From: an uncultured Ruficoccus sp.
GTDB lineage: Bacteria; Verrucomicrobiota; Verrucomicrobiia; Opitutales; Cerasicoccaceae
NCBI GenBank assembly: GCA_965140785.1
Contig: OZ223475.1
Location: forward strand, 235,814-299,813
Length of the DNA: 64,000 nucleotides
Direction of reading: 5' to 3'
Shown here one piece after another: positions 6,377-49,560 of the stretch (within the stretch, counting starts at the first letter, position 1; the number at the start of each line of letters is the position of its first letter). The translations under genes and the position numbers were made by a program. The notes below the pieces were generated by a model. It saw only the letters and a list, made by a program, of their open reading frames with translations, made no database searches and was not told where the DNA came from.

Positions 6377-7159
6377 TCAGGGAGAGGATATCGGGATGAG
6401 CAGGCTGTTCCAGCGGGTCATGGCCTTGTTGGTGGGATAAAAGACGCACAGCGCCCGGCTCTGGTCCCGAATCGGCCAGTGGCGGCGGTACACGAGCTTG
6501 AATTTATCGTCCTCGTCAATGGCGGCCATGACCTGGAATTGCTTGGGTTTTTCACCCATGACATTAATCAGGTTGCCTTCCCGGGGCTTGAGGGTCAGGC
6601 GCTGGTTTTGGGTGGCTACCTGCAAGGGGCGGCTGCCTAGATTGAAACCGTAAACGCTGCCGCGGGGAAGATGGCTTAAATCGACAGGCAGCGGATAGAG
6701 GGCGGCGGGTTGATTGCCCAGCGAATCCTGCCCGAGCAGAAAGTACGTGCCCTGACCGGCGGGCAGGCGGCAGCCCAAGCGGGGTGCATACGTGTCCTCC
6801 TCCTCGGCGGTTGCTGCGGGAATGCGCTCGTAGAGGATGAATCCGCGGGGACCCCGGTAGTGGATGGTGGGGCTGATCTTGTTGCTGACGAGTTCGAGGG
6901 GGCGGTATCCCTCCGGCGTCCAGTAGTAATACTCCCGGGATCGACTGCGGTACTCGCGCGGCATTTCATCCCCGCTGGCCAGGTTGATGGGCGGTGTGTA
7001 GCGGTGCAGTAAGATACTGACTTCCGCAGTGACCTCCGGCGTGGTTTGGGCATGCAGAGGCGTGAGCAAGGCGAGCAGGCAGGCCATCGCACCGGCCAGC
7101 AGAAAGAGGCCTGGATGGGGGGCGAGGCGGGGAGGGCGCGGGTATGGGTTAAATCTCAT
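6377..7159 (-). CDS. Secreted hypothetical protein (260 aa), overlapping the stop of the PilX-like gene
   Basis: Signal peptide (LLALLTPLHA-Q); 11-nt overlap with the upstream gene implies one operon; no catalytic motif recognised. Confidence 0.7.
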   Translation of the reverse strand: MRFNPYPRPPRLAPHPGLFLLAGAMACLLALLTPLHAQTTPEVTAEVSILLHRYTPPINLASGDEMPREYRSRSREYYYWTPEGYRPLELVSNKISPTIHYRGPRGFILYERIPAATAEEEDTYAPRLGCRLPAGQGTYFLLGQDSLGNQPAALYPLPVDLSHLPRGSVYGFNLGSRPLQVATQNQRLTLKPREGNLINVMGEKPKQFQVMAAIDEDDKFKLVYRRHWPIRDQSRALCVFYPTNKAMTRWNSLLIPISSP

Positions 7160-10100
7160 GGTTGTCGAGCCAGCGGAAGGAGACGACGACGAAGCGTCGA
7201 TTGTTGGAGCCGGGAGTTAACTCGTCGGGCTGGCGCTGGACGACCAGTTCGCAGCGCGCGGTGGCTTCGGTGCTCCCGGTCAGCGGGTTGACGGACTCGC
7301 CGTAGGCACGGATGGTGAAGGTGTCTGAACGCGGGGAGAGCGCGGCCCCCAGGCGGGAAAGCAGGTTGCCCTGGGTAAGATAGCCGGGCTGGCCGTAGGA
7401 GAGCGAGCCCATGCCGGTATAGCGGTTGAACTGGTCGAACATGTTCAGCTCGTTGTAGCTGATGGAGTTGCTGTCGTCCTCGTAGCGGTCGTTGACGATG
7501 GAGGCCTCCAGTGCAGCCTGAAGCGCCCCGATAGCGCGCTCGCGATTGTCTGCACTGAGGACGAGGTTGGCGTTCTCACGGCTGGAGAGAAAGTCCGCGT
7601 CATCAATGACCCGGTTGACGAAGTGCGCCATCGAGGTGAAGGGGCCGCGCTTTTTGACCTGCTTAACGATTTCCTGCGCCAGGCTGTCGATCTCGGCCGC
7701 GTTGAGCGTGCGAAAGCCCGCGTAAGTCTGGGCGTCTTCCTCGTCGGCGGTGTCGGCATCACCGAGAAGGGGATCGAGGTTCTGGAGATAGGGCGCGCGG
7801 GTGTCGTAGGCGGTGGTATTGACGGTGGCGCCGACCGTACCGGCTAACAGCGCCCGCCAGGCGTCCACGGAGGTGGAGTTGACGTTGAAGGCGCCGTTGA
7901 CCATGAGCGCGGCGGCAGCGTCCTCGTAGGAGGTGATCTGTGCCGCGGTCGCTCCCGCTAGCGGTACCAGGCGCGGATTGAGCATCGCCCCGGTATTGGT
8001 GTCGTATTCGGCGAAAAAGTAGCGGTCCCACAGGTAGTCGTTGAGCAGGTAGGACCAGTCGTAGATGAGCGAACCAGGGTCACTGGAGAGGTACTTGGCG
8101 GTCTTGTAGGTATGGCGGCTACGCTCATCGAGCGGGACGCCGAGCGGGGCGAGGGAGTTGCCGATGGCGAAAGCCGGGTAGCTGCTGTTGAGGTTCCAGT
8201 CCGAGCCGCTCGAAGAGAAGGCAACCAGGTAATCCTCCACGGAGTTTGTCCGGGGCATGGGCGGGGCCAGCGAGGCGTGCATGAGCGAGCCGACGGACTG
8301 GAAGTACTCAGGGCCGCCGGGCAGGTCGAAGAGCGTGTCCTGCGTGATGAACGAGCTATTCGTATCGTCGGTGAAGCCGACCGTGGGTTGCGTATATGTC
8401 AGCGACGAGTAGAAGCGGCCCCAGTCTTCCGAGTCACTACCGCGCATGGTTGTCTGGGACGAGCCCATGCTGTCGGAACGGTTTCCAGACCAGCTCAGGT
8501 AAAGCGAGTTATAGCGCGTGTCGCCGTCCTGAGTTTGTTCGATGGGGGTGCGGTCGCTGCGCGCGGCTCGGGGATTATAGGAAGCGAGGGTGGAGACGAT
8601 GGGGGTCGGGGAGGGGCTCCCCGGATAGGTGACCGGGGACAGATTCTGCACCCAGCGAAAATGCTGCGTGAAACCGAGAATGGGGAAATAGTTGTCACCG
8701 CCGAGCGCAGCCAGCGGCAAAGCATCCCAGGGCGTGGTGGCGTCCGAGGCGAAGGAGGGGATCGCTGTGGGAGAAACGGCCCACTCAGGGGACAGCACGG
8801 AGCTGCCGGAGGTTTTGCCCAGATTGGACTGATTGAAGCCGGAGATGTCTTGGAGGGGGCCCTGGCTGATCATGTCCGCCAGGTTTCCATTGCCCACGTC
8901 GAGACCGAGCCCAACATGCAGATAGCTGATACCCGTGGTTCCACTGTCCGAGACGAGCCGCAGGACGAAGGGCAGGCCGGTTTTCGGGGGAACACCGGCG
9001 ATGGCAACAGGGTCAAACCGGTCGCTCAGTTCCGAGTAAAAATAGCCGCCAGAGACGAAGCCGGGGGCCGAGGCATCGACCAGCGGGCTTCCGTTGCCGC
9101 TGGCCCAGTTCTGAGGCTGAACGGAGCCCGGGAGAAAGAGTTTGGCCTCGCCGGGCCCGAAGGCGCTGCTGATGTTGAAGCGGAATGCGCCGCGATTTTG
9201 GGAGTCGTCGGCGCCCTCGAAGATCGTTCCCGGCGCCCAGGTGTGGGTGGTGCCGTCGGCATCGGTCCACTCGACCTGTGGCGTCCAGTTGTATTTGATC
9301 TTGTTGCTGTTCGTGGTGAGGAAGAGGTTGTAGTCGGTGCTCGGAAGGGCGACGTTGTAGGGGTTCCACAGCACGACCGCGGGAAAGAACATCAGGCGCG
9401 CGATGTACTGCTGGTTGGCGCCGGGGGCTTTCAGCAGCAGCAGGTGCATGTGCATCTGGATGACGGTAACGATCGGGCCGACGCCCATCTGCGTGTTGGT
9501 CTGTGGCTGTACAGAGACGGTGTCGCCCCGCAGTCGGTAAAAGCTGCGCAACTGCTCCCAGGGCGGACCGCCGGGGTCGCGGCGTTTGTTGGTTGAACCA
9601 CTGGCCCCGCGTGCGGCGTCGGAGTCGCGCGGGTCGTAGGGCTCGGCCTGGTCGCGGTGCCCGAAGACCAGGTTGCCGTGTTCGCTTTTGAGCGTGGCGA
9701 AGTCGTCGGTGTTGCTAAAAGCGGCGCTGAGGTTGCGCTTGAGGCCACCCTCGCGCACATCGGCCAGCACCCCGAGCGAGAGCGAGGTCAGGTCATGGAA
9801 GTGATTGGCAATCAACTCCTGCCCCTCACCGCTGTCGAGGCCTGCCTGCTGCAAGAGCAGGAGCAACTGGTTCAATCCGCCCGCGCGCTCGAGCAGTTGG
9901 GTGTAGGAGGCATCGGTATGGATCGAGCCGAGGTCCTGCAGGGGGGACAGATCGTAGAGTGAATCGTTCTCCTCGATCAATTCGGGAGCGGTACGGGTGG
10001 CGGCGAGGGCGGCGATGGCCGCGTCCCGGGATTCGTTGCTGCGGGCCCAGGGGTTGTCCATGGCCAGGCTGGCCTTGACGCCGTCGTCGGCCACCCACCA

Positions 10101-10730: not shown

Positions 10731-10889
10731 GGGACAGGCCGGGCCATTGAGGCGAACACCGCTGGGGCAGTCAGGCATTCGACAGTATAGTATCGGAGCT
10801 TGAGGGATAGGATTAACCACAAGCGGGCAGACCGGAGTCTGCTCGCGCATGCCCCGAATGAGGTAAAAAGGGTAAGGATGAAAACGCTA

Positions 10890-11759: not shown

Positions 11760-11915
11760 GGCTTTAAATAGGGCCGAATTATGGAAAAGTGTCAATTTAA
11801 ATACCGTGAAAAATCGCCAAACTATCGCTAAAAATTCGAATATATTTCGATATTACTGGTTTTCAGGGGCCTGTGTAAGCAAAAATTCATATATTACAAA
11901 GAAAGTTCTTGAAAA

Positions 11916-11925
11916 TTAACGTTAA
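11916..11925. promoter_or_regulatory. Putative LacI-family operator TTAACGTTAA in the divergent promoter region
   Basis: Perfect CG-centred palindrome in an AT-rich intergenic region just upstream of the LacI gene; identical copy at 18386-18395. Confidence 0.6.
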
Positions 11926-11943
11926 AAATAAAAGAGTTTGGCC

Positions 11944-12954: not shown

Positions 12955-13034
12955 GCGCTGGACCTGCCCTCTGGGGCAGCTGTCCGTGGATGGACGCACG
13001 AAGGGTTCGTCTTCAGGGCTTGCCGGTTCGAACT

Positions 13035-14459: not shown

Positions 14460-14489
14460 GAGTGAAAGAGGAAGCTGAAGAGTTCGGGT

Positions 14490-18944: not shown

Positions 18945-21900
18945 ATGAAATTATTTTTCATGGCCTGTGGATTTGGGTTTGTTGGTGGTTGCTCAATGGC
19001 GCGTTTTATGCCGCGGATGCGTGTTGGGTTGCTTGGCCTTGTCGGGCTGGTGCTCGGCGTTTCCTGCTCAATGGGCGCAGTGAGTGTCTCTGAGATGGAA
19101 GATGGGCGGTTGCAGATTGTCATCACGGCTCCCGGGGTTGATGCCGCGCACACGCGTGTGATGATGGATATAGATGAAAACCTCGGCACGGGTTATGGAG
19201 ACGAGGGGGCGGACCTCATGATCGAAGGGGCGACGCTTTATCAATATCCGGCCGGGGCATCGGGGTGGAGTTGGAATTCGCTGGGTCCTGTCTCCAATAG
19301 CACCGAGAACGACCAGCTCACCTATACGCTTAGCGTGTCTCCTGAAGCGCGGATTTTACGGGTCTATGTGGAGAATTTTGACGATAACTGGGAGGTGACG
19401 GGACGTTATCCCGCCGAAGGAGCAATTTCCGTGGATATGACCACGGTCCCAAAGGCCCAGTCTGAAGGAGGCCAGGACGAAGGTACCCTGAGCGGAAAGC
19501 TTTACCGCACACCCTCCGGGGGGCTGGCGGTTGTTGTTTTGGGGCAGAATCTCGACCCCGGCCGCCTTCGCGTTTTCATCAATACGGATGAGAGCGCCAC
19601 GACAGGCATGGCGCCGTTTGGTGCCGACTATCTGATCGAAGGGTTAGTGCTGTATCAGTATTCGGGATCCGGCACGGACTGGAGCTGGACGCCTCTTCGC
19701 CAGCTTACGCCCGAGACTCGGGAGGGGGGGATTCTCTACCCGGTCGAAGGCTTGAATGACGGAAATACCATCGAGTATTTGATCGAGAAAACGAATACGG
19801 ACTGGGAAGTTATCGACCGCTTCCCGCAGGAGGGGACGAGGAAAATAAAAAGGTCCGATCTGAACGAATATTCTTACCAAGGGCCCGATCGACAAGTCGG
19901 GCCTAAAAATTATCACATGGAAGAGCTTCGGACGTTTTGTGCCGCCCTCGTTGAATGTCGGATTCGATGAGCGCATGGCAAAGATGGACTGGCAGGAGGT
20001 TCCGCTGACTCAGGCGCAGTGGGAGGCGGACGGGTTTTCCGAGCCCTTGCCCCTGGTCTTCAATCTTCAGGACGCGGAGACGGAGGAGGTCTTTGTCCTC
20101 GAACCCGATCAACTCCTTACGTCGGGCGAATGGACCCAGTGGATGGGGGAGGCCGACGGCGTGCGGTGGCGGGTGATCGGTCACGAGGATGAGCGGGGGG
20201 ATATGGATCTCTATGCGCAGTTGAAAAGCGATAAAGAGCGGCTGCTGCGCTTGGGAGTCGGCGTGGAGATGCCGCTGGAGGGATGGGTGTGGCATGACGA
20301 TGTCGAGTATCGCAGGCCGATCGAGGACGAGGAGGTGTACGCATACACCGGGAGTAGTCCGTATGGCCTGGACGGGGCTGTCTCCAAGTATCCGCTCGGA
20401 GTCATCAGTGATGAAAATCGTAGCCTGATTCTTGAGACCGATTTGAGCGAGCCCGTCGTCTTCAACATCGCAGCCCTCCCGCAAGAGGAGACGTTCGCGA
20501 TTTATTATGACGTGGCACTCACGCCGTTGACCCGGAAATTCCCGGGCGAGGCCGTGCTGCACCTGAGCTTGCGAGCACGCACAAGCCAGGAGCAGCAGGC
20601 CTTTCGCCTGGCATTGGATGAGCTCTACGGTCGCTATCCGTCGTTGTTCGAACGGCGTCCGGACGCGGTCGGATTGTGGATGCCTTTCACGGACATCTCA
20701 AACATCCCCGATCCGCAGGACTTTGGATTCGCCTATTATGAAAAAGGGGGAGCGCTTGGTTCGGATGTCGATTTCTGCCACGAGAACGGGGTCTTGACGC
20801 TGGTGTATACGGAGCCGTGGCTGTATTGGCTTCCCATGCCGCAGGGGATGGAGCGGACCCCGGAGTCCGCGCTGGGGCTCATGCGCAGTCTTTCCGCCAG
20901 CGGCGCGGGCCGGCCGGGCGAATTTGCTTCGGCGGGGCTACTGGGGGCGGCGCGATCGGTTGACGGCGATATTGTCATGACTTTTCAGGACGTGCCCTGG
21001 AATTCCGGGGCGCGCATGGAGGTGAGCACGGACCCGGAGTTGCCGACTCGGGACGGCGCGACGGTGAATCGGGCGATGGCGGAGTTCGCGTTCATGCGTG
21101 AGCAGATGGAACACGAAAAGGTGGATGGCATCTATCTGGACTCGCTCAGCGCGATGTTCACGATGGACTATAATCCGGCGGCGCTGGCCGTGGCCGACTA
21201 TCCGGCGACCTTTACCGCCGATGTGCTCAAACCCGGACTCGCGACTCCCGTCGCCGCCTATGAATTCATCGCGGCGCTGGCTGGCTATGCCCGGCAGGAA
21301 GGAAAGTATCTGATGGGGAATTTCCCTTGCTGGAATTTTCCGTTCTTTATGCCGTTGATCGATATTCCGGGGGAGGAGACCCACTGGTTCGGAGAGGGAC
21401 GGTACGAGCGCATGCCGGATCGGGAGATGAACTACCGGCGCGCGATGTCCGGCCAGAAAGCCTGGGGATTTCTCATGAATGGGAAGTACGATCACTTCGA
21501 TCCGGAATTCGCCCGCCGCTACTTCGAGGACTGTCTGTTCTGGGCCTTTCAGCCGAGTCTCTTCAGCCACGATGCGGCGAACGATCCGTACTGGGAAAAC
21601 CCGGAGTGGTACGAGCGGGACCGTCCGTTTTTCCGCCGTTACATGCCGTGGATTCAGCGGCTGGCGGCGGTGGGCTGGCGTCCGCAGGGGAGCGCTGTCG
21701 TCTCCGATGAGGAGATTCAAGTCGAGCATTTTTATGGTGACCGCGACCCGGTTCAGTTCGTTACGGTTCGAAACTCAAGTCAGACACCGATAAGCACGTA
21801 TCTGGAAGTACCGCTCTCCGGTGAGGACGCGCAGTGGGTGTGGATGAATCCGCTGGACGGGGAGGCCGGATGGATTTTTACAGATGCTTCGGGCATGGGC

Positions 21901-23115
21901 ACTGTTCCTGTCTCGCTGGAGCCGGATCAGGTGCGCTTGCTGGCCCTGATGCCGAGCGGCGAAATCGCGTCCGAAATCGTGTTTTTGAAAGACTGGGCGG
22001 ATGGCAAGGGGGATGCCGGTCGTTTGATCGACAAGCTGGCATCGCTTCAAGACGAACAAGAGGCGGGCTTGCTCATGGGGGTGGAAATTTCCCAGCCCGC
22101 GCTGCGTGGTGTCGAGAATGACATCTGGGTGGGGGTAAAGAATGTCACCCCATCGGTGCTGACGCTGGCCCATCTCCGACTCGTGCCAGCCGATGGGGAA
22201 GCCCTGGAGCTGCTGGATGAGCCGGTCGAGATTACTCCGTCGCAGATGCTGGGCATCCCTGTGGAGGTCTCCGCCGGCTTCGGGCAGGATGGGGGCTTCA
22301 GCCTCGACGCCGATTTCACCGTTGAAGACGGTGGTGGCGAGCACCGTTTGAGCCAGCCCGTGACGTGGACCCTGCGTGATCCCGTTGCCATCAGCTTGAC
22401 GGATCCGCATGTGATATCGATTCAGGAGCGGGCGAGTATCTCGTTGCGGGTTCGCAACCTGATGAATGCGCCGGCGACGATTACTTTTACCTGGGACGGT
22501 GATTACGGGGAGGGTGAATCTGAAGTGACCCTCAAGGCCAAGGAGGAGCGTAGGGTTTACCTGCCGGTTGTTTCCGGCGGGAGGTCGGAAGGAGCCGTTA
22601 CGGTGCGGGCCGAATCGAGGGGCGTGGATCTCTTTAAATCGGTGGCCACCGTGACGTTCCTGGGAGCGCATGCCAGTGTCGTGCGGGATAGCTCGGTGGC
22701 GGTGAGTACCAGCGGGGACTTCCCGGGGTATACTCCGCAGACGTTGCGCGACGGCGTGACCCGGCCTGGAGCCGAGATGGCTTTTAACGAGGCCGCGTGG
22801 GCATCCGAAGACGTGCCCGGAGACACTTGGGTGCGCTTTGATTTTCCTTCCCCGATCGAAGTCAGTGAGGTGAAGCTTTACTGGAATGAGGAAGGGGGAG
22901 TCCGCTACACCTCTCAATCCGGGGTGGTGGAGGGTGTGCGGGAAGACGGTTCCACCTGGCCGCTGCAAAACTACACCTCCGAGCAGGGGGCTGCCGTCAC
23001 CACGGTTTCGTTTGATCCGGCCCGTGTGGTGGGGCTTGTCATCCGCCAACCGGACAGTCAGGGCCCTGTTTCGCGTCCCGATATTCTGTGGTTGAACGAG
23101 ATCGAGGTGCACTAG
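18945..23115 (+). CDS. Very large secreted multidomain protein (~1390 aa when a frameshift at ~19936 is repaired): two N-terminal repeat modules, putative glycoside-hydrolase-like barrel, C-terminal discoidin/F5-8-like domain
   Basis: ORFs 18945-19970 and 19939-23115 join if one T of tttt (19935-19938) is removed. Repeats D.D.N..TG...GAD..IEG..LYQY; core with LVYTEPW, VDGIYLDS, LMGN; C-terminal LRDG...AWAS...WVRFDF. Confidence 0.7.
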
Positions 23116-26992: not shown

Positions 26993-28396
26993 TTGAAAAT
27001 TCTACTTTACACTTGCCTCGCAGGCTTTGTGCTTGCGGCCACGGTTTCCCATGCCTCCCGTGCCTCCGATGCACGGGAGGCCTTCGGGAAAATCAAATCG
27101 TATGCCTGTTACTACGGTGAAGGAAAGCTGAAGGAGCTGGCCGGTCGCGATGCGGTTATTATCGAGACGAATAACCAGAGCCCGGAGGACATCCGCTTGC
27201 TGCAGCAAGGAGGCACGCTCGTCGTCGGTTATATCAGCATCGGCGAGGACGATGTATTGCGGGTAGGGGACGCCAAGGGACCGGGCGGGAAAGATTCCGC
27301 TTACTTTGACCGGGATAAAGACGGGCAGCCCGATAAGAACGGGGTCTGGGATTCGTACTACGCGGACTCCAGGCAACCGGCCTGGCGTAAGTACTTCATG
27401 GAAAATATCGCCAGGATGAACGATGTTTACCATGTGGATGGATTCTTTCTGGACACCGTTGATACGAGCGAACTCTATCCGGAGTCTGAGCAGGCAATGA
27501 TCTCTCTGATCCGGGAGTTACGCCAGGCTTACCCGGATAGCCTCATTGTGCTCAATCGCGGTTTTCACACCGTCGCGCAACTGGCTCCGGTCATTGACGG
27601 CGTGATGTTCGAGAGCTTTACGTCCAGCTATGACTGGGCGAGCAAGGACTACATCCTGCTGACGCCGTCTTCCTGGGATTACGGGCTGGAAGTCTGGCAG
27701 GAGGTGCTCAAGCCGGCCATGGACAAATACGGCGTGGTCGTCCTCGCCCTGGATTATGCGCCCTCCGCCACTTCACCCCTGGTGCAGACAGCGATGGACC
27801 GGGCTGTCACGTTCGGGTTCGTGCCGGAGGTCTCCTCTATTTATTTGGATACCATTTATGAGATCGGGTATGAGCCTCGGAAAAACCCGGACTATCTCAC
27901 GATGTTCTGTACACCGGAGCGTTTGAGCTATGAACTGGCGGAGGCGGCCAATGGTTTTCCGAGCGGGACACGCGTCATGCCCAGCTCCTCCTACCCGGAT
28001 TACGAGGTGAAGGCCGTGGTCGATGGCATCGAGGACAAGAGTACCCTCGGGTGGCGTCAGCGAGCCTGGGCTTCGCGGGAAGAGGACGAGGAGCACTGGC
28101 TGGAGTTCACGCTGCCGCGCCCGGTGAGGGTGGACGGCCTTACGATCAGTTGGGCCAGGGACAATGGTACGCTCTATGCGACGCGGGACTTTCGGGTCGA
28201 GGTGAAGCCGCCGGACGGCGGTGATGAGTGGGTGTGCGTCAGTACGGTCTCGGATAACCGCGAGCCCAGCAATAGTGTTCAGTTTGCTCCGATGGATGTC
28301 TCCGCCTTGCGCGTGGTCCAGGACGGGGGAGAGGGCTCACCGCTACGGCCCGACCTGATGTGGGTGGAAAAAGTCGTCCTCTCCTCGGTCGATTAA
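26993..28396 (+). CDS. Secreted endo-alpha-1,4-polygalactosaminidase-like hydrolase (PelA hydrolase/TM1410-like, GH114/GH166) with a C-terminal discoidin-like domain
   Basis: Signal peptide; YACYYG, VGYISIGE, DGFFLDTVD, LIVLNRGF, DGVMFESF, VLALDYA; TTG start. Confidence 0.8.
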   Translation: MKILLYTCLAGFVLAATVSHASRASDAREAFGKIKSYACYYGEGKLKELAGRDAVIIETNNQSPEDIRLLQQGGTLVVGYISIGEDDVLRVGDAKGPGGKDSAYFDRDKDGQPDKNGVWDSYYADSRQPAWRKYFMENIARMNDVYHVDGFFLDTVDTSELYPESEQAMISLIRELRQAYPDSLIVLNRGFHTVAQLAPVIDGVMFESFTSSYDWASKDYILLTPSSWDYGLEVWQEVLKPAMDKYGVVVLALDYAPSATSPLVQTAMDRAVTFGFVPEVSSIYLDTIYEIGYEPRKNPDYLTMFCTPERLSYELAEAANGFPSGTRVMPSSSYPDYEVKAVVDGIEDKSTLGWRQRAWASREEDEEHWLEFTLPRPVRVDGLTISWARDNGTLYATRDFRVEVKPPDGGDEWVCVSTVSDNREPSNSVQFAPMDVSALRVVQDGGEGSPLRPDLMWVEKVVLSSVD

Positions 28397-28420: not shown

Positions 28421-30412
28421 ATGAGCATCATCGATTGGGGAATCGTCACGTTACTGTTGATGGCGATGATCGGCATCGTGCTGTATTCGCGCCGGTACAT
28501 GCGCGGCGTGGCGGACTATCTCGTGGCTAACCGTTGCGCCGGGCGTTATCTGCTCACCCTGTCCGAGGGGATCGCCGGGCTGGGAGCCATCACGATCGTG
28601 GGAAGCTTCGAGATCACCTATCAGGCGGGCTTTGTGCCGATCTGGTGGGGGTTCTTTCTGTCGCCGCTGGGGTTGATCATCGCGTTGTCGGGATTCGTTA
28701 TTTATCGCTTTCGTCAGACGCGCTCGATGACGATGCCGCAGTTTATCGAAATGCGTTATGGGCGGTCTTTTCGTGTTTTTTGCGGCATGCTCGCCTTCCT
28801 TTCGGGCCTGATCAACTTTGGGGTTTTTCCGGCGATCACGGCCCGTTTCTTCATCCATTTCTGCCAGTTGCCGGAAGCGTTCACGCTTCTTGGAACGCCG
28901 ATAGCGACCTTTCCGGTGGTCATGGCGATTGAGCTGAGTCTGGCGTTGTTGTTCGTCTTTATGGGCGGACAGATCACGGTTCTGCTAACGGATTTCGCGC
29001 AATCGACATTCTGCCTGCTCGCCTTCCTGGTCATCATGCTGTTCCTGCTCTGGATGTTCGATTGGCAGGACATTATCGGTGCTCTGAAAACCCGCCCGGA
29101 CGGTGAGTCCATGATTCATCCTTTCAGAGCGGGGAACATGCGGGACTTCAATCTCAGCTATTACCTGATCGGCGTTTTCATGGTGGCCTATACGACGCGG
29201 GCCTGGCAGGGGAGCTCCGCCTATAACTCCTCGGCCCGCACCGCGCACGAGGCCCGCATGGCGGGGATTCTCGCCAACTGGCGCGCCATTGCTCAGGCGA
29301 TGGCCCTCTTGCTCATGCCGCTGTGCGTGTACGCCGTCCTGCACAACCCGGTTTTCAGCGGGCAGGCGACGGAGATTCTCCGTGATCTCAGTCAGTTCGC
29401 CGACCCGGTGGTGCGGCAGCAGATGACGGTGCCGGTTGGTCTCCAGCATATTCTGCCCGTGGGGATGACGGGCCTGCTGGCGGCGGTGATTCTGGCCGCA
29501 GCCGTCAGTACGGACAACACGTACATGCACTCCTGGAGCAGTATCTTTATTCAGGATGTGATCATGCCGTTTCGGAAAAAGCCGCTGGGCCAAAAACAGC
29601 ACATCCGGCTTTTACGTTTCGGGCTGGTGGGCGTCGCGTTCTTCGCCTGGTGCTTCAGTGTGATTTTTCCGCTGCGGGATTACATCTACATGTTTTTTGA
29701 CATCACCGGAGCCATCTTTCTGGGCGGGGCCGGCTCTGTCATCATCGGCGGGTTGTACTGGAAGCGGGGGACGACGGCGGGCGCCTGGGCCGCCATGCTC
29801 GTGGGGGCCGTGCTCTCGGTGGGCGGGCTCTGCGTCCAGTCTTATTGGACATCCATTTCGCCCACGCTGATTCACTGGTTCCCGCAGTGGACATATCTGC
29901 AAAGCGTGGCCGATGACTTTCCCTATAACGGGCGTCACATGATGTTCTTTGCCATGTTGTGCGCGATTTTTTCCTACGTCGGCGTTTCGCTGCTCCAAAA
30001 TTACGTGCATAATATGGACAAGCTGCTTCATCGCGGCGCATACCGCCGGGCGGATGATCCATCCGTCGATAAGCCGCTCAAATCCTGGCGTAGCCTGGGG
30101 ATGGGGGCGGAATTCACCTTTTGGGACAAGGTGATTTACATCAGTACGATTGTCTGGGTGCTGGGATGGTGGTGCGTGTTTCTGATCGGCAGTGCGGTCA
30201 ATCTGGTGGCCGACATTGGCGAGGACGCGTGGATAGCCTTCTGGAAGATCAATCTGTGGATTTCCGTGCTGCTCGCCGTTTTTACCTCCCTGTGGTTTAT
30301 CGCGGGCGGCATTCGGGATGTGCGACAGATGTTTCACGACCTGCGGCATGCGAGGGTGGACGAGGACGATGATGGCCGGGTCATCGATGGTGAAAACGCC
30401 GATGACCGGTGA
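28421..30412 (+). CDS. Sodium:solute symporter (SSS) family protein
   Basis: IDWGIV..., VADYLVANRCAGRY, TMPQFIEMRYG, GGLYWKRGTTAGAW; many TM helices. Confidence 0.9.
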   Translation: MSIIDWGIVTLLLMAMIGIVLYSRRYMRGVADYLVANRCAGRYLLTLSEGIAGLGAITIVGSFEITYQAGFVPIWWGFFLSPLGLIIALSGFVIYRFRQTRSMTMPQFIEMRYGRSFRVFCGMLAFLSGLINFGVFPAITARFFIHFCQLPEAFTLLGTPIATFPVVMAIELSLALLFVFMGGQITVLLTDFAQSTFCLLAFLVIMLFLLWMFDWQDIIGALKTRPDGESMIHPFRAGNMRDFNLSYYLIGVFMVAYTTRAWQGSSAYNSSARTAHEARMAGILANWRAIAQAMALLLMPLCVYAVLHNPVFSGQATEILRDLSQFADPVVRQQMTVPVGLQHILPVGMTGLLAAVILAAAVSTDNTYMHSWSSIFIQDVIMPFRKKPLGQKQHIRLLRFGLVGVAFFAWCFSVIFPLRDYIYMFFDITGAIFLGGAGSVIIGGLYWKRGTTAGAWAAMLVGAVLSVGGLCVQSYWTSISPTLIHWFPQWTYLQSVADDFPYNGRHMMFFAMLCAIFSYVGVSLLQNYVHNMDKLLHRGAYRRADDPSVDKPLKSWRSLGMGAEFTFWDKVIYISTIVWVLGWWCVFLIGSAVNLVADIGEDAWIAFWKINLWISVLLAVFTSLWFIAGGIRDVRQMFHDLRHARVDEDDDGRVIDGENADDR

Positions 30413-40710: not shown

Positions 40711-40810
40711 GTCCTCGGTCGAAATTATTGCGACCCTTTTGAAATAACCCTTCAACTTGCAAATGCGAATCCAAAAGTAACACTTTCCTAACTTTTGAAG
40801 GAGTTCGATG

Positions 40811-40839: not shown

Positions 40840-40846
40840 CAAGCCC

Positions 40847-43456: not shown

Positions 43457-43654
43457 ATAGCGAGCGCATGTCACCGACTCCGTACCTTCTGCTGCCACTT
43501 GGGCATGTTTTCAACCGACCTGCGTTCAAGCTCCGGCGCCTCTCCATCTCTCCTTTGGGGAAGGGGATACTACCTCGTTTAATGGATGTCTAGCTAACAT
43601 CCGTTTCTTATCTTTTCAGGGATCCTTTCCTTTCACATTACCGATATATTTTTG

Positions 43655-46792: not shown

Positions 46793-48040
46793 ATGAAATC
46801 TCCACAGAGGGTTGCCGTCGCCGGAATCGGCGGATTCAGCACCAGTCACCATCACGCACTGCGCGAATTGGAGGCCGAGGGTGTCGTTCAGGTCGTAGCG
46901 GCCTGCGACCCCCGCCATCACCAGCTCGAGGATCGCAAGGCACTTCTGGATTTTTCCGGACGAAACGTAGCCGTTTTTGAAGATTTTCACGAAATGCTGG
47001 ACAGCGGCGCTTACGATTGGATCTCATTGGCAACGCCCATCTCCCTGCACGCTTCCATGCATGCTTCCTGTGTCGAACGCCAGCTGCCATGCTACCTGGA
47101 GAAACCGCCTACGCTCGACCCCTGTGAATTGGAAAAGATGATAGCCACGGACGCGGGGGCCAGCCGGCAAACTCAGGTCGGGTTCAACTATGTGTATGAG
47201 CCCGAGCGCTTACAGCTTAAGAAGCGCTTGCTCGCCGGCGAATTCGGAGCGCTGCGCGAGATCAGTTTCCGGGGCGCGTGGCGGCGTGCTCAGGCCTACT
47301 ACCGGCGCAACGACTGGGCGGGCCGTCTGCAACACCGTGACACGCTGCTGCTGGATTCCTGCATGGGCAACGCCATGTCGCACTACGTCCATAACATTCT
47401 GTTCATGGCGGGTGTATCGCGCATGGACTCCTGGGGCCACTGTCGTCGGGTTGAGGCGCAGCTTTTTCGTGCCAATCCGATCGAAAGTGCGGACACGGTC
47501 TTTGTGAGAGGCGAATTGGACGATTCCATCAAAATCCGCCTCGCCCTGACACACGCGTGTGAAGCCGAAAAGGTGATGGTGGAAAGTCTCGTCTGTGATG
47601 ATGCGCTCATCCAGTTAATTCCACAGAAGCGGATCGACATAAAATTCTCAAATGGGATTCATGAAACGATTCAGGTTGCACCTCGCAATTACCTGAAGGA
47701 GAACTTTCGTTTGTTCGGTCAATACGTGGCAGGAAGCACGGAGGGCTTGCTCGGCACACTGGCGCATTGTCGCCCCTTCGTACAGCTCAATGCCCTGGCT
47801 TTCCTTTCAACCGGGAGCATACACGAGGTGATGCAGCCGGTTAGCGAATTCATCGCGCCGGGTAGCTACTGGCGAATCCCGGGGATCGAAGCTCTTCTGG
47901 AAGAGTTTGTGAAGACCGGAGACTTTTCGATACTACATTCTTTGGGGAACCCCTGCGTATCATCCCGCCCAGTGTCTCCGACGGAGCTGGTTCAGCTTCG
48001 AGAGGCAATCTCTGGGATTTCGCAATTGGTGGCCGACTGA
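46793..48040 (+). CDS. Gfo/Idh/MocA oxidoreductase, same subfamily as 14490-15701
   Basis: VAGIGGF, YLEKPP, YYRRNDWAG, DSCMGNAMSHY. Confidence 0.85.
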   Translation: MKSPQRVAVAGIGGFSTSHHHALRELEAEGVVQVVAACDPRHHQLEDRKALLDFSGRNVAVFEDFHEMLDSGAYDWISLATPISLHASMHASCVERQLPCYLEKPPTLDPCELEKMIATDAGASRQTQVGFNYVYEPERLQLKKRLLAGEFGALREISFRGAWRRAQAYYRRNDWAGRLQHRDTLLLDSCMGNAMSHYVHNILFMAGVSRMDSWGHCRRVEAQLFRANPIESADTVFVRGELDDSIKIRLALTHACEAEKVMVESLVCDDALIQLIPQKRIDIKFSNGIHETIQVAPRNYLKENFRLFGQYVAGSTEGLLGTLAHCRPFVQLNALAFLSTGSIHEVMQPVSEFIAPGSYWRIPGIEALLEEFVKTGDFSILHSLGNPCVSSRPVSPTELVQLREAISGISQLVAD

Positions 48041-48111: not shown

Positions 48112-49560
48112 ATGGACAGACCTCATATTATATTAATCAATGTCGATCAATGGCGTGGCGACTGCCTGGGGATCGATGGCCATCCGACGGTCGGCACCCC
48201 TTATCTTGATCAGCTGGCACAGGGTGGGGCTCGGTTCAGCCGGGCGTACTCCGCGACTCCGAGCTGCATCCCGGCCCGGGCGGCATTGCATACCGGTTTG
48301 ACGGCACGTTCGCACGGTCGGGTCGGCTACAAGGACGGTGTAGCCTGGAACTATCCGGTGACGATGGCGGGCGAATTCAGCCGTCATGGCTATCAGACCC
48401 AGGCCGTCGGCAAGATGCACGCCTACCCGGAACGGGAGCGGCTCGGCTTCGACCATGTTGAGCTGCACGATGGGTATATGCATTTCGGCAGAAATCGGGA
48501 ACGGCCATTGGAATTCGTGGACGACTACCTGCCCTGGCTCCGTGAGCGCTTTGGCGCGGACGCCGACTATTTCGAACACGGACTGAACTGCAACTCGCTG
48601 GTCGTGCGACCCTGGGACAAGCCGGAGCACCTCCATCCGACGAATTGGGTCGTTACCCGGTCGATCGATTTCCTGCGCCGGCGGGACCCGCGCAAGCCGT
48701 TCTTTTTGTTTATGTCTTTTCATCGGCCGCATCCACCGCTCGATCCGCCTGCCTGGGCCTATGAACAATTTTTGGATGTGGAGATGCCCGATCCTCCGTT
48801 GGGTGATTGGGTCGACCTCTTTAAGGGGCTTGAGGAGCCTTACCGGGCCGATCGCTATGTGGGTATGCTCAAGCCTGACGCGCTACGCCGGGCGCGTGCT
48901 GGCTACTATGGTCACTTGCTTCACATCGACCATCAAATCAACCGCTTTCTGGAATCACTTCAGGAGTTTAATTTGCATCAGGACTGTTACATCTGTTTTG
49001 TTTCCGATCACGGCGAAATGCTGGGCGACCATCATCTGTACCGCAAATTTCTCCCCTATGAAGGCTCGGCGCGCGTTCCCCTGCTTCTGAAAGGGCCTCG
49101 CGGCTGCGGCATTCGGAGTGGTTCTCAGCATGAGGCGCCTGTTGAAATGCGTGATGTGATGCCGACTCTGCTCTCCTGTGCGGGGCTACCTGTCCCCGAT
49201 TCCATCGAGGGGCGCAGTTTCCTTCCCTTGGCCAGGGGAGAGGATGTGGACTGGCGTGCTTATCTTCACGGAGAGCATATCAGTCACGGGGATTCCTCCA
49301 CGCAGTGGCTCACCGACGGACATGAAAAGTATATATGGTTCAGTCAATGGGATCGCGAACAACTCTTTAATCTGGATGACGACCCGCAGGAGCTTCGGGA
49401 TCTCAGCCATGAGCGTCCGGATCGGGTGGCGCATTGGCGTCAATGCCTCATCGCCGAGCTGCGAAATCGAGAAGAGGGATTTGTGGAAGGTGAAAAGCTT
49501 GTCGCAGGTCGGCCTCAGCATGCTTGCCTGTCCCATATTTTGCCGCCTGCTACCTCATGA
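48112..49560 (+). CDS. Formylglycine-dependent (S1) sulfatase
   Basis: RPHIILINVDQWR, C-I-P-A-R (CxPxR) followed by AALHTG, GKMH, SDHG, KFLPYEGSARVP; no signal peptide. Confidence 0.92.
   Translation: MDRPHIILINVDQWRGDCLGIDGHPTVGTPYLDQLAQGGARFSRAYSATPSCIPARAALHTGLTARSHGRVGYKDGVAWNYPVTMAGEFSRHGYQTQAVGKMHAYPERERLGFDHVELHDGYMHFGRNRERPLEFVDDYLPWLRERFGADADYFEHGLNCNSLVVRPWDKPEHLHPTNWVVTRSIDFLRRRDPRKPFFLFMSFHRPHPPLDPPAWAYEQFLDVEMPDPPLGDWVDLFKGLEEPYRADRYVGMLKPDALRRARAGYYGHLLHIDHQINRFLESLQEFNLHQDCYICFVSDHGEMLGDHHLYRKFLPYEGSARVPLLLKGPRGCGIRSGSQHEAPVEMRDVMPTLLSCAGLPVPDSIEGRSFLPLARGEDVDWRAYLHGEHISHGDSSTQWLTDGHEKYIWFSQWDREQLFNLDDDPQELRDLSHERPDRVAHWRQCLIAELRNREEGFVEGEKLVAGRPQHACLSHILPPATS

Follow-up and report, generated by a model that had tools for sequence, protein, structure and literature searches.

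A PEP-CTERM gene followed by a gene for a type IV pilin-like protein constitutes a real, directional and recurrent pairing in the genome of this sugar-degrading bacterium, present far above chance, and the binder-plus-pilin module that results is real. Many polysaccharide gene clusters here appear to carry their own small surface sugar-binding protein and then their own pilin-like protein, and the pairing may mark pilus-based glycan capture without the usual outer-membrane transporters. Capture or import of glycan, as we infer it, is the best-supported reading of the module.

PEP-CTERM and pilin genes are paired genome-wide

The window (the whole stretch of DNA analysed, 64,000 nucleotides) derives from a 4.36 Mb genome of the Opitutales, near Ruficoccus (91% complete, 59% GC). 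Gene neighbourhoods were assessed in 3354 genes from a crude home-made call, using PEP-CTERM and pilin profiles built from the same genome; these identified 100 PEP-CTERM genes and 51 pilin genes, the latter count covering the H-X9-DG/DUF1559-type family. The three gene pairs located in the window by a sequence-only reading were all present at their positions, and the adjacency test that it had proposed, run across the genome, yielded 21 pairs of direct neighbours (mean 3.0, maximum 9 in 5000 genome-wide label shuffles). The PEP-CTERM gene preceded the pilin gene on the same strand in 14 pairs (label shuffle mean 0.98, maximum 6) and followed it in three (binomial p = 0.013). Shuffling restricted to blocks of 6, 10 or 20 genes gave means of 3.6, 2.9 and 2.3 respectively, with 14 reached in 0/3000; neither observed figure was matched in any shuffle, genome-wide or local. 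A PEP-CTERM gene lay within five genes of 41 of the 51 pilins.

By BLAST, 71/100 PEP-CTERM proteins were singletons, and the 22 adjacent partners fell into 19 clusters, 15 of which were singletons. Pilin and partner similarity matrices were weakly correlated (Mantel r 0.23, reached in 78/5000 permutations), and two clear cases of co-duplication were found (C39:101395 with C26:262712 and C20:55423 with C4:189237). The predicted enrichment beside CAZymes was not borne out, a clear CAZyme family being present in 13/22 pair loci and in 6/10 random 16-kb control loci. Five of 20 fetched pair loci (L004, L009, L014, L017 and L020) contained no sugar regulator, CAZyme family (even an ambiguous one) or sugar symporter; L005 likewise lacked all three, its sugar-related content being just a PfkB sugar kinase and a solute-binding-protein-like gene. 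In L012 the PEP-CTERM gene is immediately 5' of a canonical type II secretion (T2SS) operon (gspG...gspK...secretin), an arrangement as compatible with a secretion link as with a capture link.

The three loci of the window

The features of the three loci are listed in Table 1. A module shared by all three had been proposed, and this holds for loci 2 and 3, in which a PEP-CTERM gene precedes a pilin gene of the H-X9-DG/DUF1559 type; locus 1 has a GspK/PilX-like giant in that place and is related to, yet distinct from, the other two. Genes matching the regulator, enzyme, symporter and Gfo/Idh/MocA enzyme claimed for each locus were found at all three, except that the symporter of locus 3 is doubtful because the sole candidate neighbours a GH42 and is encoded on the opposite strand.

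Table 1. Features of the three loci (window positions)
Locus	Feature	Position	Strand	Remarks
1	Secreted protein, 260 aa	6377..7159	-	11-bp overlap with stop of 1233-aa gene
1	GspK/PilX-like giant, 1233 aa	7149-10850	-	39 bp downstream of PEP-CTERM gene
1	PEP-CTERM protein, 289-301 aa	10890-11795	-	Tail IPEPQEMG...RWRRRS; own profile 33.8 bits
1	LacI regulator	11938-12954	+	Pfam
1	MFS_2 symporter	13035-14459	-	Pfam
1	Gfo/Idh/MocA	14490-15869	-	Pfam
1	GDSL esterase	15757-17151	-	Pfam
1	Beta-helix protein	16889-18166	-	Pfam
2	Two upstream secreted-protein genes	18945..23115	+	341 aa and 1058 aa
2	LacI-family regulator	23214-24263	+	Pfam
2	Gfo/Idh/MocA oxidoreductase	24328-25482	+	Pfam
2	PEP-CTERM protein, 228 aa	25618..26304	+	Signal peptide, predicted CBM9-like beta-sandwich, IPEP, TM helix, R-rich tail
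2	Pilin-like protein, 213 aa	26339..26980	+	H-X9-DG/DUF1559-type; 34 bp after PEP-CTERM gene
2	GH114-like glycoside hydrolase with F5/8 type C (CBM32-like) domain	26993..28396	+	12 bp past pilin gene
2	Sodium:solute symporter (SSF)	28421..30412	+	Pfam SSF 62.8 bits
3	MFS_2 symporter	36983-38407	Opposite to locus 3	Beside a GH42; sole symporter candidate
3	AraC-family regulator, 607 aa	39025-40848	-	Divergent from PEP-CTERM gene
3	PEP-CTERM ORF, 662 aa	40808/40847-42796	+	Signal peptide, beta-helical PATR/autotransporter-repeat body, PEP-CTERM, CBM_4_9
3	Pilin-like protein, 213 aa	42815-43456	+	18 bp downstream of PEP-CTERM ORF
3	Beta-helix protein	43652-45403	+	Pfam
3	FAD-dependent oxidoreductase	45411-46748	+	Pfam
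3	Gfo/Idh/MocA	46793-48040	+	Pfam
3	Sulfatase	48112-49560	+	Pfam

At locus 2 the run from the PEP-CTERM gene ends with the symporter, and its last gap is 24 bp. The PEP-CTERM protein (tail IPEP...RRRRRRS) scored 34.8 bits with our own profile and 13.4 bits with Pfam PEP-CTERM, under the cut-off of 20.7, and its Ruficoccus and Cerasicoccus relatives are annotated as PEP-CTERM proteins. In the AlphaFold model (pLDDT 76.5) its body has a fold resembling that of CBM9 carbohydrate-binding modules, the best Foldseek match being 1i82_A (E 6.4e-5); other matches were the CBM74 of Sas6, the BACUNI_03838 carbohydrate-binding protein and CBM9 7nwo. The downstream enzyme matched Pfam Glyco_hydro_114 (33.9 bits) and F5_F8_type_C (39.1 bits). 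An F5/8 type C domain also lies at the C-terminal end of the upstream 1058-aa protein, and the 341-aa repeat protein matched no Pfam family.

The locus 3 PEP-CTERM ORF matched PATR (33.1 bits), PEP-CTERM (22.8 bits) and CBM_4_9 (50.4 bits). Its PEP-CTERM signal is internal (aa 468-493), and the frame continues for 165 aa without a stop through a second hydrophobic segment and then the CBM_4_9 domain; in the other 99 accepted PEP-CTERM ORFs the signal lies no more than 12 residues from the end. A start at the in-frame TTG at 42320 would yield a separate secreted CBM. The divergent regulator matched HTH_18 (110 bits in two stretches) and AraC_binding. Together with the CBM9-like protein of locus 2, this CBM_4_9 domain and the ConA-like Laminin_G_3 domains found in 4/20 other partners support the surface-lectin claim, by which the PEP-CTERM partners are of lectin or CBM type, binders rather than enzymes.

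The locus 2 pilin has the sequence G|LSLIELL, with Glu5 kept and the His of H-X9-DG substituted, and that of locus 3 has G|FSLVELL, with Glu5 and an H-X9-DG motif seen by eye (both in alignment A1). They scored 26.4 and 21.2 bits respectively with N_methyl (cut-off 21.2), 26.8 and 23.1 bits with TIGR02532 (cut-off 16.3) and 148 and 161.8 bits with our own family profile. The best NCBIfam match of both was GspG, at 28-31 bits over the N-terminal helix only, below the membership cut-off of 88.85. The motif [GA]-F-x-x-x-E was present in 51/51 pilins. The predicted structure of the locus 2 pilin (pLDDT 77) supports a pilin fold for these H-X9-DG/DUF1559-type proteins: pilins or pseudopilins made up 17 of its top 19 structural matches, including PilA4 (Z 6.1), EpsG (Z 5.3) and the DNA-binding competence pilin ComP (Z 5.0).

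The locus 1 module comprises a PEP-CTERM protein, a giant and a small secreted protein. No Pfam family exceeded threshold in the PEP-CTERM body, which is possibly ConA/CBM4_9-like (CBM_4_9 at E 0.13 only); its ESM Atlas leads were PEP-CTERM clusters (0.97) and legume-lectin PEP-CTERM clusters (0.90-0.91). The giant has a prepilin-like N-terminus (SG|FALIISL...) without Glu5; Pfam PilX_N was sub-threshold (16.9 bits, cut-off 25.5) and TIGR02600 membership was not reached, while the nearest ESM Atlas cluster was 'Verru_Chthon cassette protein A' (0.98), with T2SSK clusters at 0.78. It belongs to an expanded family with 15 more paralogous ORFs of at least 1040 aa in the genome. A same-strand gene of 218-312 aa follows 12/14 giant paralogues, a 135-aa gene follows one and none follows another; the 260-aa secreted protein, which matched no Pfam family, was connected by BLAST to one of these downstream partners.

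Conservation, machinery and expression

The locus 2 set is kept in Cerasicoccus frondis and C. maritimus, where the GH114-like and SSF genes are syntenic, with identities of 75-77% (Gfo), 46% (LacI), 56% (PEP-CTERM), 56% (pilin), 60-62% (GH114-like) and 79% (SSF), and LacI and Gfo/Idh/MocA genes also adjoin the pair in a Verrucomicrobiia MAG. All eight relatives of the locus 2 PEP-CTERM protein with a PEP-CTERM-like tail adjoin a pilin of the same kind: three, from Verrucomicrobiota, in the order PEP-CTERM then pilin (gap 2-5 bp) and five, from Planctomycetota, in the reverse order (gap 109-148 bp). At four Akkermansiaceae MAG loci CBM9-like and GH114-like domains occur in a single ORF (1042-1319 aa), which makes the substrate of the GH114-like enzyme two genes downstream the most likely ligand of the free PEP-CTERM protein. 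Adjacency was not universal elsewhere in the order. In a genome of the same genus (G011) a PEP-CTERM gene adjoined five of the 20 best-scoring pilins by profile, and the addition of L072 and L077 by eye and of L083 brought this to about 8/20. In a genome from another, distant family (G016) it did so at 1/20 pilins examined of 60, neighbours being secreted proteins of 670-740 aa, so the PEP-CTERM partner is dispensable for the pilin family.

The shared assembly machine postulated to lie elsewhere was located outside the loci: seven T2SSE ATPase matches (four full-length, three shorter), including PilT-like types, five secretins, one prepilin peptidase and three exosortase loci, and type IV pilus machinery is present. 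As reported for the region, no TonB-dependent receptor, Plug or SusD match was found among the 49 window ORFs scanned. The genome proper holds one TonB-dependent receptor and no SusD was found in it; the sole SusC/SusD pair is on contig C9, which is 39% GC against 59% for the genome.

Co-induction by substrate, also anticipated, is recorded for the locus pilin of another member of the order, Verruconatronum alginivorum. In Table S3 of PMC13274419, pilin pgaptmp_000050 reaches 0.513% of the proteome with alginate, against 0 with either sucrose or mannose. On alginate it exceeds each enzyme of its own operon and is about eight times as abundant as the housekeeping GspG (0.064%). The product of the gene that follows, a 298-aa protein with a signal peptide and a single TM segment, accounts for 0.168%, with alginate only (PMC13274419).

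Readings of the module

The best explanation, which we prefer tentatively, is that binder and pilin of loci 2 and 3 capture glycan at the surface, perhaps importing fragments. The import step, on which the earlier idea of a functional stand-in for SusC/SusD depends, is hypothetical. It is possible, if doubtful, that the locus pilins are instead extra pseudopilins adapting a shared T2SS pseudopilus to their own folded cargo, that is the CAZymes and the PEP-CTERM lectin, the latter needing outer-membrane passage after exosortase processing, with glycan fragments entering through porins. L012 fits such a role, as do the GspG matches, short of cut-off as they are, and the G016 pilins that adjoin large secreted proteins rather than lectins. 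The authors of PMC13274419 suggest T2SS export for the alginate lyases of the operon with the induced pilin, and surface-anchored proteins are placed by T2SS according to PMC12802150 and PMC5553014. However, low abundance would be expected of a tip or adaptor subunit, whereas the V. alginivorum pilin outweighs GspG (PMC13274419, Table S3); the favoured neighbour is a non-enzymatic binder rather than an enzyme, and Glu5 is kept in all 51 pilins, as in polymerising subunits.

Adhesion alone appears improbable. On this reading the pilins would build adhesive pili or be displayed on them, and the cell, coated with PEP-CTERM lectins, would cling to polysaccharide in particle or gel form as its secreted enzymes act, small products being taken up independently of both proteins and no polymer imported. 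The lectin/CBM folds are consistent with this, as are the PilT-like ATPases and the rest of the type IV pilus machinery, and pilin and PEP-CTERM protein have diverged from Cerasicoccus faster than the symporter, as is typical of exposed proteins. It leaves two things unexplained: the route of oligosaccharides over the outer membrane, given a single TonB-dependent receptor and dozens of glycan loci, and the need for a separate pilin for each substrate; apart from these two points, nothing here distinguishes it from capture. That the two proteins have no joint function is quite improbable. Both families would then simply be abundant in envelope-related operons, and the pairs might be a few duplicated ancestral two-gene units, or the pilin-like proteins might never polymerise and serve as inner-membrane-anchored periplasmic sensors or chaperones. 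The two co-duplicated pairs, the Pfam name 'SBP_bac_10' for DUF1559 and the rarity of pairing in G016 argue for this; but the partner bodies are mostly unrelated by BLAST, so a few duplications cannot account for 21 pairs, the order bias persists under local shuffling, the pair is conserved over two phyla, and the model resembles a pilin head rather than a solute-binding fold.

In the preferred capture model, the first gene would encode a small secreted protein that binds carbohydrate (CBM9-like, ConA/LamG-like or CBM4_9-bearing) and reaches the cell surface by way of PEP-CTERM/exosortase sorting, and the second a locus-specific pilin-like protein of the H-X9-DG/DUF1559 kind. Both would be co-transcribed with the secreted glycan-cleaving enzyme and inner-membrane symporter of the locus, under the local LacI or AraC regulator. 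The single prepilin peptidase would cleave the pilin, and type IV filament machinery from other parts of the genome (ATPases of the GspE/PilB and PilT types, secretins) would assemble it into a short filament or onto a filament tip. Filament and surface lectin may then jointly capture the cognate glycan and hold it for the enzyme, and the filament may pull fragments into the periplasm by way of a secretin, after which the symporter would import the sugars. Such secretin-mediated uptake of glycan fragments would resemble the uptake of DNA by competence pili.

Two modules in the three glycan-type loci

The genome comprises 4.36 Mb in 50 contigs and is 91% complete, the window representing the last 64 kb of contig C4. 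Homologues of one window protein were found in Ruficoccus amylovorans (67% identity) and Cerasicoccus frondis (55%), and also in a Puniceicoccales MAG, which places the source among the Opitutales/Puniceicoccales verrucomicrobia. Three glycan-type loci were recognized when 49 window ORFs were scanned with Pfam and NCBIfam, and their genes are listed in the table together with the other features discussed here. The last four genes of locus 2 are separated by only 34, 12 and 24 bp. The sequence-only reading had assigned a symporter to each locus; this stands for loci 1 and 2 and is only loosely true for locus 3, because the closest symporter, an MFS_2 protein, is encoded on the other strand beside a GH42 gene. 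The 260-aa secreted protein of locus 1 and the 341-aa repeat protein of locus 2 matched no Pfam or NCBIfam family, even at E <= 1.

Features of the three loci, their surroundings and other sites in the genome
Locus	Feature	Sequence	Coordinates	Strand
1	Beta-helix protein	window		minus
1	GDSL esterase	window		minus
1	Gfo/Idh/MocA protein	window		minus
1	MFS_2 symporter	window		minus
1	LacI regulator	window		divergent
1	PEP-CTERM gene	window	10890-11795	minus
1	1233-aa gene	window	7149-10850	minus
1	260-aa secreted protein	window	6377-7159	minus
Downstream of 1	1178-aa secreted protein	window	1864-5400	
2	341-aa repeat protein	window	18945-19970	plus
2	1058-aa F5/8C protein	window		plus
2	LacI regulator	window		plus
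2	Gfo/Idh/MocA protein	window		plus
2	PEP-CTERM gene	window	25618-26304	plus
2	Pilin	window	26339-26980	plus
2	GH114-like + F5/8C protein	window	26993-28396	plus
2	SSF symporter	window	28421-30412	plus
Near 3	MFS_2 symporter adjoining a GH42	window	36983-38407	opposite to locus 3
3	AraC regulator	window		divergent
3	ORF with PATR repeat, PEP-CTERM, CBM_4_9	window	40808-42796	
3	Read-through region of this ORF	window	42190-42400	
3	In-frame TTG of this ORF	window	42320	
3	Pilin	window	42815-43456	
3	Beta-helix protein	window		
3	FAD oxidoreductase	window		
3	Gfo/Idh/MocA protein	window		
3	Sulfatase	window		
Downstream of 3	B12-binding-domain and URO-D-like proteins	window	49775-51613	
	Rare-sugar catabolic cluster	window	54521-57737	
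	PEP-CTERM gene upstream of a giant paralogue	C39	150959 (paralogue)	
L012	PEP-CTERM gene upstream of T2SS operon	C40 (G000)	515-16515	
L014	Pair near FUR-family regulator	C48 (G000)	352907-368907	
L017	Pair near FUR-family regulator	C47 (G000)	65106-81106	
	SusC/SusD pair	C9	16227-20563	
	Sub-threshold cobalamin riboswitch match	C10	385505-385577	

The 1178-aa secreted protein just downstream of locus 1 gave weak RHS/YD-repeat matches. Just downstream of locus 3, a 211-aa B12-binding-domain protein adjoins a URO-D-like protein; corrinoid methyltransferase systems typically show this arrangement, which may here be linked to the demethylation of methylated sugars. The rare-sugar catabolic cluster encodes a protein resembling sulfoquinovose isomerase (NF048012, 91 bits, far short of the 700 cut-off), a prokaryotic ketohexokinase and a D-lyxose isomerase-like protein, with AraC regulators alongside.

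A single repeated cassette had been read into all three loci. This had to be abandoned, because the locus-1 partner belongs to another family, a 1233-aa GspK/PilX-like giant in the place of an H-X9-DG pilin; one module is common to loci 2 and 3, and a second, related one is found in locus 1. The giant resembles GspK/PilX and the Verru_Chthon cassette protein A in its prepilin-like N-terminus without Glu5, its large size and a family restricted to Verrucomicrobiota. The PilX_N match was sub-threshold (16.9 bits, cut-off 25.5). In the ESM Atlas the nearest cluster was 'Verru_Chthon cassette protein A' (0.98), T2SSK clusters scoring 0.78, and this likeness is the one tie of the 1233-aa protein to cassette protein A; TIGR02600 (cut-off 332 bits) did not match the window protein, and eight giant paralogues matched model positions 1 to ~60 at no more than 39 bits. 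The cassette differs in that no B, C or D cassette genes were seen beside the 1233-aa gene, a small secreted protein being found instead.

BLAST identified 15 further paralogous ORFs of 1040-1292 aa. The next same-strand gene of the 14 called paralogues encodes 218-312 aa in 12 cases and 135 aa in one, and is missing in one. The 218-312-aa followers belong to no known family and often show a stop/start overlap, and the giants share the conserved C-terminal ending ...GR+F.[IV]V.F+WL... A PEP-CTERM gene lies directly upstream of only one called paralogue (C39:150959), as it does at the window copy.

Gene pairing in this genome and its relatives

Own-genome profiles run on all six-frame ORFs recovered 100 PEP-CTERM ORFs and 69 pilin-like ORFs, 51 of which scored at least 90 bits and constitute the ~210-aa family. 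Adjacency was assessed on a crude GC3-based gene call (3354 genes), into which both families were forced and which recovered the Pfam-supported window genes. Twenty-one of the 51 pilins directly adjoined a PEP-CTERM gene (label shuffle mean 3.0, maximum 9 in 5000), and in 14 of these both genes were on one strand with the PEP-CTERM gene first (shuffle mean 0.98, maximum 6); three had the pilin first and four were on opposite strands. For 41/51 pilins a PEP-CTERM gene was no more than five genes away. Because both families concentrate in the same regions, labels were also shuffled within blocks of 6, 10 and 20 genes. The 14 ordered pairs were reached in 0/3000 block shuffles (means 3.6, 2.9 and 2.3; maxima 12, 10 and 8 respectively), and likewise the 21 adjacencies (0/3000). 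The adjacency noticed at the window loci by the sequence-only reading is therefore upheld genome-wide, above every shuffle, and both the pairing and the gene order are real features of this genome.

A few recent duplications are not enough to account for the pairs, because the 22 adjacent PEP-CTERM partners fell into 19 BLAST clusters, 15 of them singletons. Pair modules that look co-duplicated were limited to two sets. The PEP-CTERM bodies as a whole were mostly unrelated (71/100 singletons by BLAST), and the similarity matrices of pilins and partners were weakly correlated (Mantel r 0.23, reached by 78 of 5000 permutations).

Twenty-two pair loci, comprising 20 fetched ~16-kb loci and two in the window, were assessed for gene content. 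A LacI/GntR/AraC-type regulator was present in 14/22, and a clear GH, PL, CE or sulfatase family lay within 16 kb in 13/22 (15 with two ambiguous loci). The families included GH5, GH10, GH113, GH29, GH43, GH88, GH78, GH106 and PL8, as well as alginate lyase, AXE1, sulfatases and the window enzymes. Of the 20 fetched loci, four carried a symporter of the SSF or MFS_2 type, and five (L004, L009, L014, L017 and L020) had no sugar regulator, CAZyme family (even ambiguous) or sugar symporter; the same three were absent from L005, which has no more than a PfkB sugar kinase gene and one for a solute-binding-protein-like product. The expectation that pairs would be enriched beside CAZymes failed: 13/22 pair loci compares with a degradative GH in 6/10 random 16-kb control loci, and no enrichment is demonstrable in this CAZyme-dense genome. 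In three of those six control loci an unpaired pilin was flanked by GHs.

Two of the pairs without sugar genes (L014 and L017) have a FUR-family regulator nearby. FUR in L014 is followed by two unknown proteins and a 294-aa pilin, towards which the gene of a 414-aa PEP-CTERM protein converges. Non-glycan ligands, for example metals, may also be handled by the module.

The single 25618 protein sequence (the locus-2 PEP-CTERM partner) retrieved no related locus, and a search with an alignment of the locus-2 protein retrieved 49, of which 37 (L111-L147) were analysed after exclusion of the 12 weakest (E >= 5e-9). All eight relatives retaining a PEP-CTERM-like tail (six tails by profile, two by eye) adjoin a pilin. 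In the three verrucomicrobial cases (a MAG, Cerasicoccus frondis and C. maritimus) the PEP-CTERM gene precedes the pilin with gaps of 2-5 bp; in the five planctomycetal cases (Botrimarina, a Pirellulales MAG, Adhaeretor and two Bythopirellula) a 370-400-aa DUF1559-type pilin lies upstream, with gaps of 109-148 bp. The 29 tail-less relatives had a pilin directly downstream in four cases, within 6 kb in six and none in 19. The locus-2 block of Gfo/Idh/MocA, LacI, PEP-CTERM, pilin, GH114-like and SSF genes is whole in both Cerasicoccus genomes, at 75-77, 46, 56, 56, 60-62 and 79% identity respectively; relative to Cerasicoccus the transporter has diverged more slowly than the pilin and the lectin, which have kept pace with each other.

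Among 41 genomes of the order, expansion of the pilin family is restricted to a few: this genome has 56 copies, G011 (same genus) 33, G016 60 and G015 19, and the other 37 have 0-9. Neighbours were checked for the 20 best-scoring pilins each of G011 and G016. An adjacent PEP-CTERM gene was found in G011 for 5/20 by profile, or ~8/20 after the addition of L072, L077 and L083 (the tails of L072 and L077 being 'PEA' variants read by eye), and in G016 for 1/20. The PEP-CTERM partner is therefore one lineage-dependent form of neighbour, the wider theme being a pilin in a glycan locus. The G016 pilins sit between secreted proteins of 670-740 aa sharing a C-terminal F-x-R-L-like ending.

In these large G016 proteins beside pilins (L091-L110) an ending of the form ...F/Y-F/Y/M/L-R-L-x-x... 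stands in place of PEP-CTERM. The same ending occurs in many multi-domain CBM9-like relatives from other Verrucomicrobiota (L114-L147), and may be another sorting signal.

Pilins, PEP-CTERM partners and cell-envelope machinery

Both 213-aa window pilins have a class III signal peptide with Glu5, and [GA]-F-x-x-x-E is present in 51/51 family members. The 26339 protein (locus 2) scored 26.4 bits with N_methyl (PF07963, cut-off 21.2) and 26.8 with TIGR02532 (cut-off 16.3), and the 42815 protein (locus 3) 21.2 and 23.1 bits respectively. Alignment with paralogues revealed a prepilin N-terminus followed by C.SNLRQIG, LY..DH.G..P, CP, SY..N and RH.G.AN..F.DGHV. The pilins thus resemble the H-X9-DG (TIGR04294)/DUF1559 (PF07596, SBP_bac_10) families in their prepilin N-terminus and C-terminal RH.G.AN..F.DGH, and differ from them in the small size of the window copies (213 aa) and in the loss of the His from the 26339 protein. 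By eye, H-X9-DG is present in the 42815 protein, and the 26339 protein has Tyr for His. Neither window pilin matched TIGR04294 at E <= 0.01 or PF07596 at E <= 0.001. Four pilin paralogues match PF07596, and all 24 TIGR04294 matches in the genome fall inside the 51-member family, with which the window pilins score 148 and 162 bits by own profile. On this sequence evidence they are classed as relatives of the H-X9-DG/DUF1559 family, short of its curated model.

GspG (TIGR01710) matches reached 28.4 and 31.4 bits (cut-off 88.85) and covered the N-terminal 57 residues only, and a genuine T2SSG gene is located elsewhere in the genome (L012). The predicted structure of the 26339 pilin (pLDDT 77) has a helix at residues 11-61 and a four-stranded head. 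Foldseek against the PDB returned nothing at E <= 0.001, and 17 of the 19 top VIA-align rows were pilins or pseudopilins with low Z (6.1-3.2), including PilA4 (6.1), EpsG (5.3) and ComP (5.0). Matches of the pilin profile in a PDB sequence search were confined to the N-terminal helices of pilins.

A Pro-Glu-Pro motif, a hydrophobic helix and a basic cluster are readable in all three window PEP-CTERM translations, which scored 33.8, 34.8 and 37.1 bits with the own-genome profile. The Pfam cut-off (PF07589, 20.7) was passed by the locus-3 ORF only (22.8; the 25618 protein scored 13.4). The signal of the locus-3 ORF is internal (aa 468-493 of 662), and this ORF alone among the 100 accepted PEP-CTERM ORFs has a signal more than 12 residues from its end. 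No stop follows ...VWRRRRK, and a second hydrophobic segment leads into the CBM_4_9 domain. The in-frame TTG would begin a separate secreted 158-aa CBM, and the nearest homologue, from a same-genus genome (32% identity), ends right after the PEP-CTERM region. The read-through could represent a lost stop codon, an assembly error or a genuine two-part protein.

The PEP-CTERM partners look like binders, not enzymes. A ConA-like lectin domain, Laminin_G_3, was found in 4/20 partners outside the window, and Pfam identified CBM_4_9 in the locus-3 ORF. The model of the 25618 protein (pLDDT 76.5) matched by Foldseek the CBM9 of Thermotoga Xyn10A (1i82_A, E 6.4e-5, probability 1.00, TM 0.42/0.49) and a second CBM9 (7nwo, E 2.4e-4); other CBM-like and DOMON-like chains scored similarly, and further matches were CBM74 of Sas6 and a Bacteroides carbohydrate-binding protein. 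The CBM9_1 sequence model (PF06452) did not match this protein even at E <= 1. The strongest functional clue for the CBM9-like domain comes from four Akkermansiaceae MAG loci, in which it is joined to a GH114-like catalytic domain in a single ORF of 1042-1319 aa. In the window the two domains are separate genes with the pilin gene in between, and the 25618 protein is therefore best read as a free-standing, cell-anchored binding module for the substrate of the operon enzyme. The GH114-like/CBM32-like content of the operon predicts polygalactosamine or GalNAc-rich polymers as ligands.

T2SSE-family ATPase matches numbered seven, four spanning ~370 profile positions and three shorter, PilT-like in length; the genome also encodes five secretin matches and one prepilin peptidase (Peptidase_A24). 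Exosortase (PF09721) gave four matches over the cut-off at three places (C34, C10 and C26, the last in two frames). In L012 a 220-aa PEP-CTERM gene lies directly upstream of a canonical T2SS operon, comprising T2SSG, three small ORFs, T2SSK, two further ORFs and a secretin, with a T2SSE ATPase just beyond.

The sequence-only reading had recognized neither a TonB-dependent receptor nor a SusD homologue in the window, and the family search agreed: none of the 49 ORFs matched TonB-dependent receptor (PF00593), Plug (PF07715) or SusD (PF07980). Genome-wide, two receptor barrels, three Plugs and one SusD were detected. The only SusC/SusD pair and two of the three Plugs lie on the 44-kb contig C9, whose GC content is 39% (genome 59%) and which is probably a Bacteroidota contaminant in the bin. 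The C9 pair was considered as a refutation of the label 'SusCD-free' and rejected on its GC content and the estimated contamination of 1.2%. With C9 read as contamination, one TonB-dependent receptor (C46) is left for dozens of glycan loci in a genome of which ~9% is missing. The genome search for cobalamin riboswitches gave one sub-threshold match (29.1 vs 31.5 bits), with no PEP-CTERM or pilin gene behind it.

Proposed role and relation to known systems

Verrucomicrobiota and Planctomycetota play a major part in the degradation of complex and sulfated polysaccharides. To our knowledge neither phylum has the SusC/SusD transporters by which glycan uptake is explained in Bacteroidota, and we know of no function assigned to the H-X9-DG/DUF1559 pilin-like proteins, which are among the largest families in that position. 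The pairing of a locus-specific lectin with a locus-specific pilin is directional, statistically solid and conserved from Opitutales to Pirellulales-type planctomycetes. We tentatively favour, at rather less than an even chance, a reading of the pair as a substrate-specific 'binder plus pilin' module which captures the glycan of its locus via shared type IV filament machinery. The locus pilin and PEP-CTERM binder would act with this machinery, the glycan would be caught at the cell surface and possibly passed through a secretin, and the symporter would finish uptake.

Capture or import is favoured because the induced pilin of Verruconatronum alginivorum is abundant and the partner is a binder, not an enzyme, and because of the Rosetta-stone fusion and the near-absence of TonB-dependent receptors. 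A rival reading is secretion specificity, the locus pilins adapting the secretion machinery for locus cargo; the PEP-CTERM gene heading the T2SS operon in L012 and the large secreted neighbours of the G016 pilins speak for this reading, which appears rather unlikely. Adhesion without import would likewise employ a surface binder and a pilin, and is improbable. Complex prediction with the lectin body (aa 26-201) and the pilin head (aa 36-213) returned an ipSAE of 0.00 in both runs, made without controls, and counts neither for nor against an interaction. That the two proteins have no joint function, set beside an adjacency above every shuffle, is the least probable of these accounts.

The capture-and-import reading can be extended to PVC-wide outer-membrane nutrient import by interchangeable 'binder plus pilin' cassettes, in which the PEP-CTERM-anchored binder would hand its ligand to the cognate H-X9-DG/DUF1559 pilin and a retractile filament would reel it through the secretin, replacing TonB-dependent SusC/SusD-type transport. 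This extension is unlikely as it stands. If true, it would serve glycans and perhaps other nutrients, and would provide a function for the very large DUF1559/H-X9-DG families.

What was already known comprises the two families and the fact that they are expanded in PVC bacteria, the hypothesis of uptake by pili, and one case of a locus pilin induced by its substrate. Boedeker et al. (2017; cited in PMC12078418) proposed that planctomycetes take up polysaccharides by 'fishing rod' pili, and the passage of PMC12078418 concerned names no gene pairing. The literature searched, with subscription journals outside its scope, contained no description of PEP-CTERM/pilin pairing in PVC bacteria, and described no partner for H-X9-DG/DUF1559 proteins. 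No printed counterpart was found for four findings: that a PEP-CTERM lectin is paired, directionally and with statistical support, with its cognate pilin; that this pairing is conserved in two phyla; that fusions tie the lectin to the enzyme of its operon; and that a second module, a GspK-like giant with a small secreted protein, is also expanded. Taken together, pairing, conservation and enzyme fusion give the loosely framed 'fishing rod' idea a concrete form, in specific gene pairs for which ligands are predicted.

A published parallel is V. alginivorum (Opitutales), in which the operon pgaptmp_000047-60 is alginate induced and includes pgaptmp_000050, a 'pulG-like pseudopilin' of which that genome has 67 homologues (PMC13274419). 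On alginate this pilin accounts for 0.513% of the proteome, more than any operon enzyme and ~8 times the housekeeping GspG (0.064%), and on sucrose and mannose for 0 (PMC13274419). The next gene, 000049, encodes a 'hypothetical' 298-aa protein with a signal peptide and one TM segment (0.168%, alginate only), and the divergent SSF symporter is also alginate-specific; the authors suggest that the lyases are exported by the T2SS, and the word PEP-CTERM is absent from the main text (PMC13274419). The bacterium belongs to the same order, and as in the window a locus pilin sits in a LacI-controlled operon, there with lyases and a divergent SSF symporter; this pilin is followed by a ~300-aa signal-peptide/one-TM protein, both being detected on the substrate only (PMC13274419). 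It differs in the order of pilin before partner and in the annotation of the partner as 'hypothetical' (PMC13274419).

Competence pili (ComP, PilA4) offer a mechanistic likeness: in the capture proposed here, as in DNA uptake, the polymer would be held by a pilin, or by a binder associated with the pilus, and pulled in through a secretin; PilA4 and ComP are among the top matches of the locus-2 pilin, and secretins and PilT-like ATPases are present. They differ in that the ligand here would be a glycan and that dozens of alternative pilins each occupy their own catabolic locus, often with a separate lectin.

The SusC/SusD loci of Bacteroidota are likewise substrate-specific clusters with their own regulator and secreted glycan-cleaving enzymes, encode, next to an envelope component, a surface protein that binds glycans without being an enzyme, and recur often within one genome, every copy having a specificity of its own. 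Glycan loci of PVC genomes could be located by the pair, much as SusC/SusD is used in Bacteroidota. In contrast to those loci, the window has no TonB-dependent transporter or SusD, the binder is anchored by PEP-CTERM/exosortase rather than as a lipoprotein, the envelope partner is pilin-like, and inner-membrane uptake is by SSF or MFS_2 symporters.
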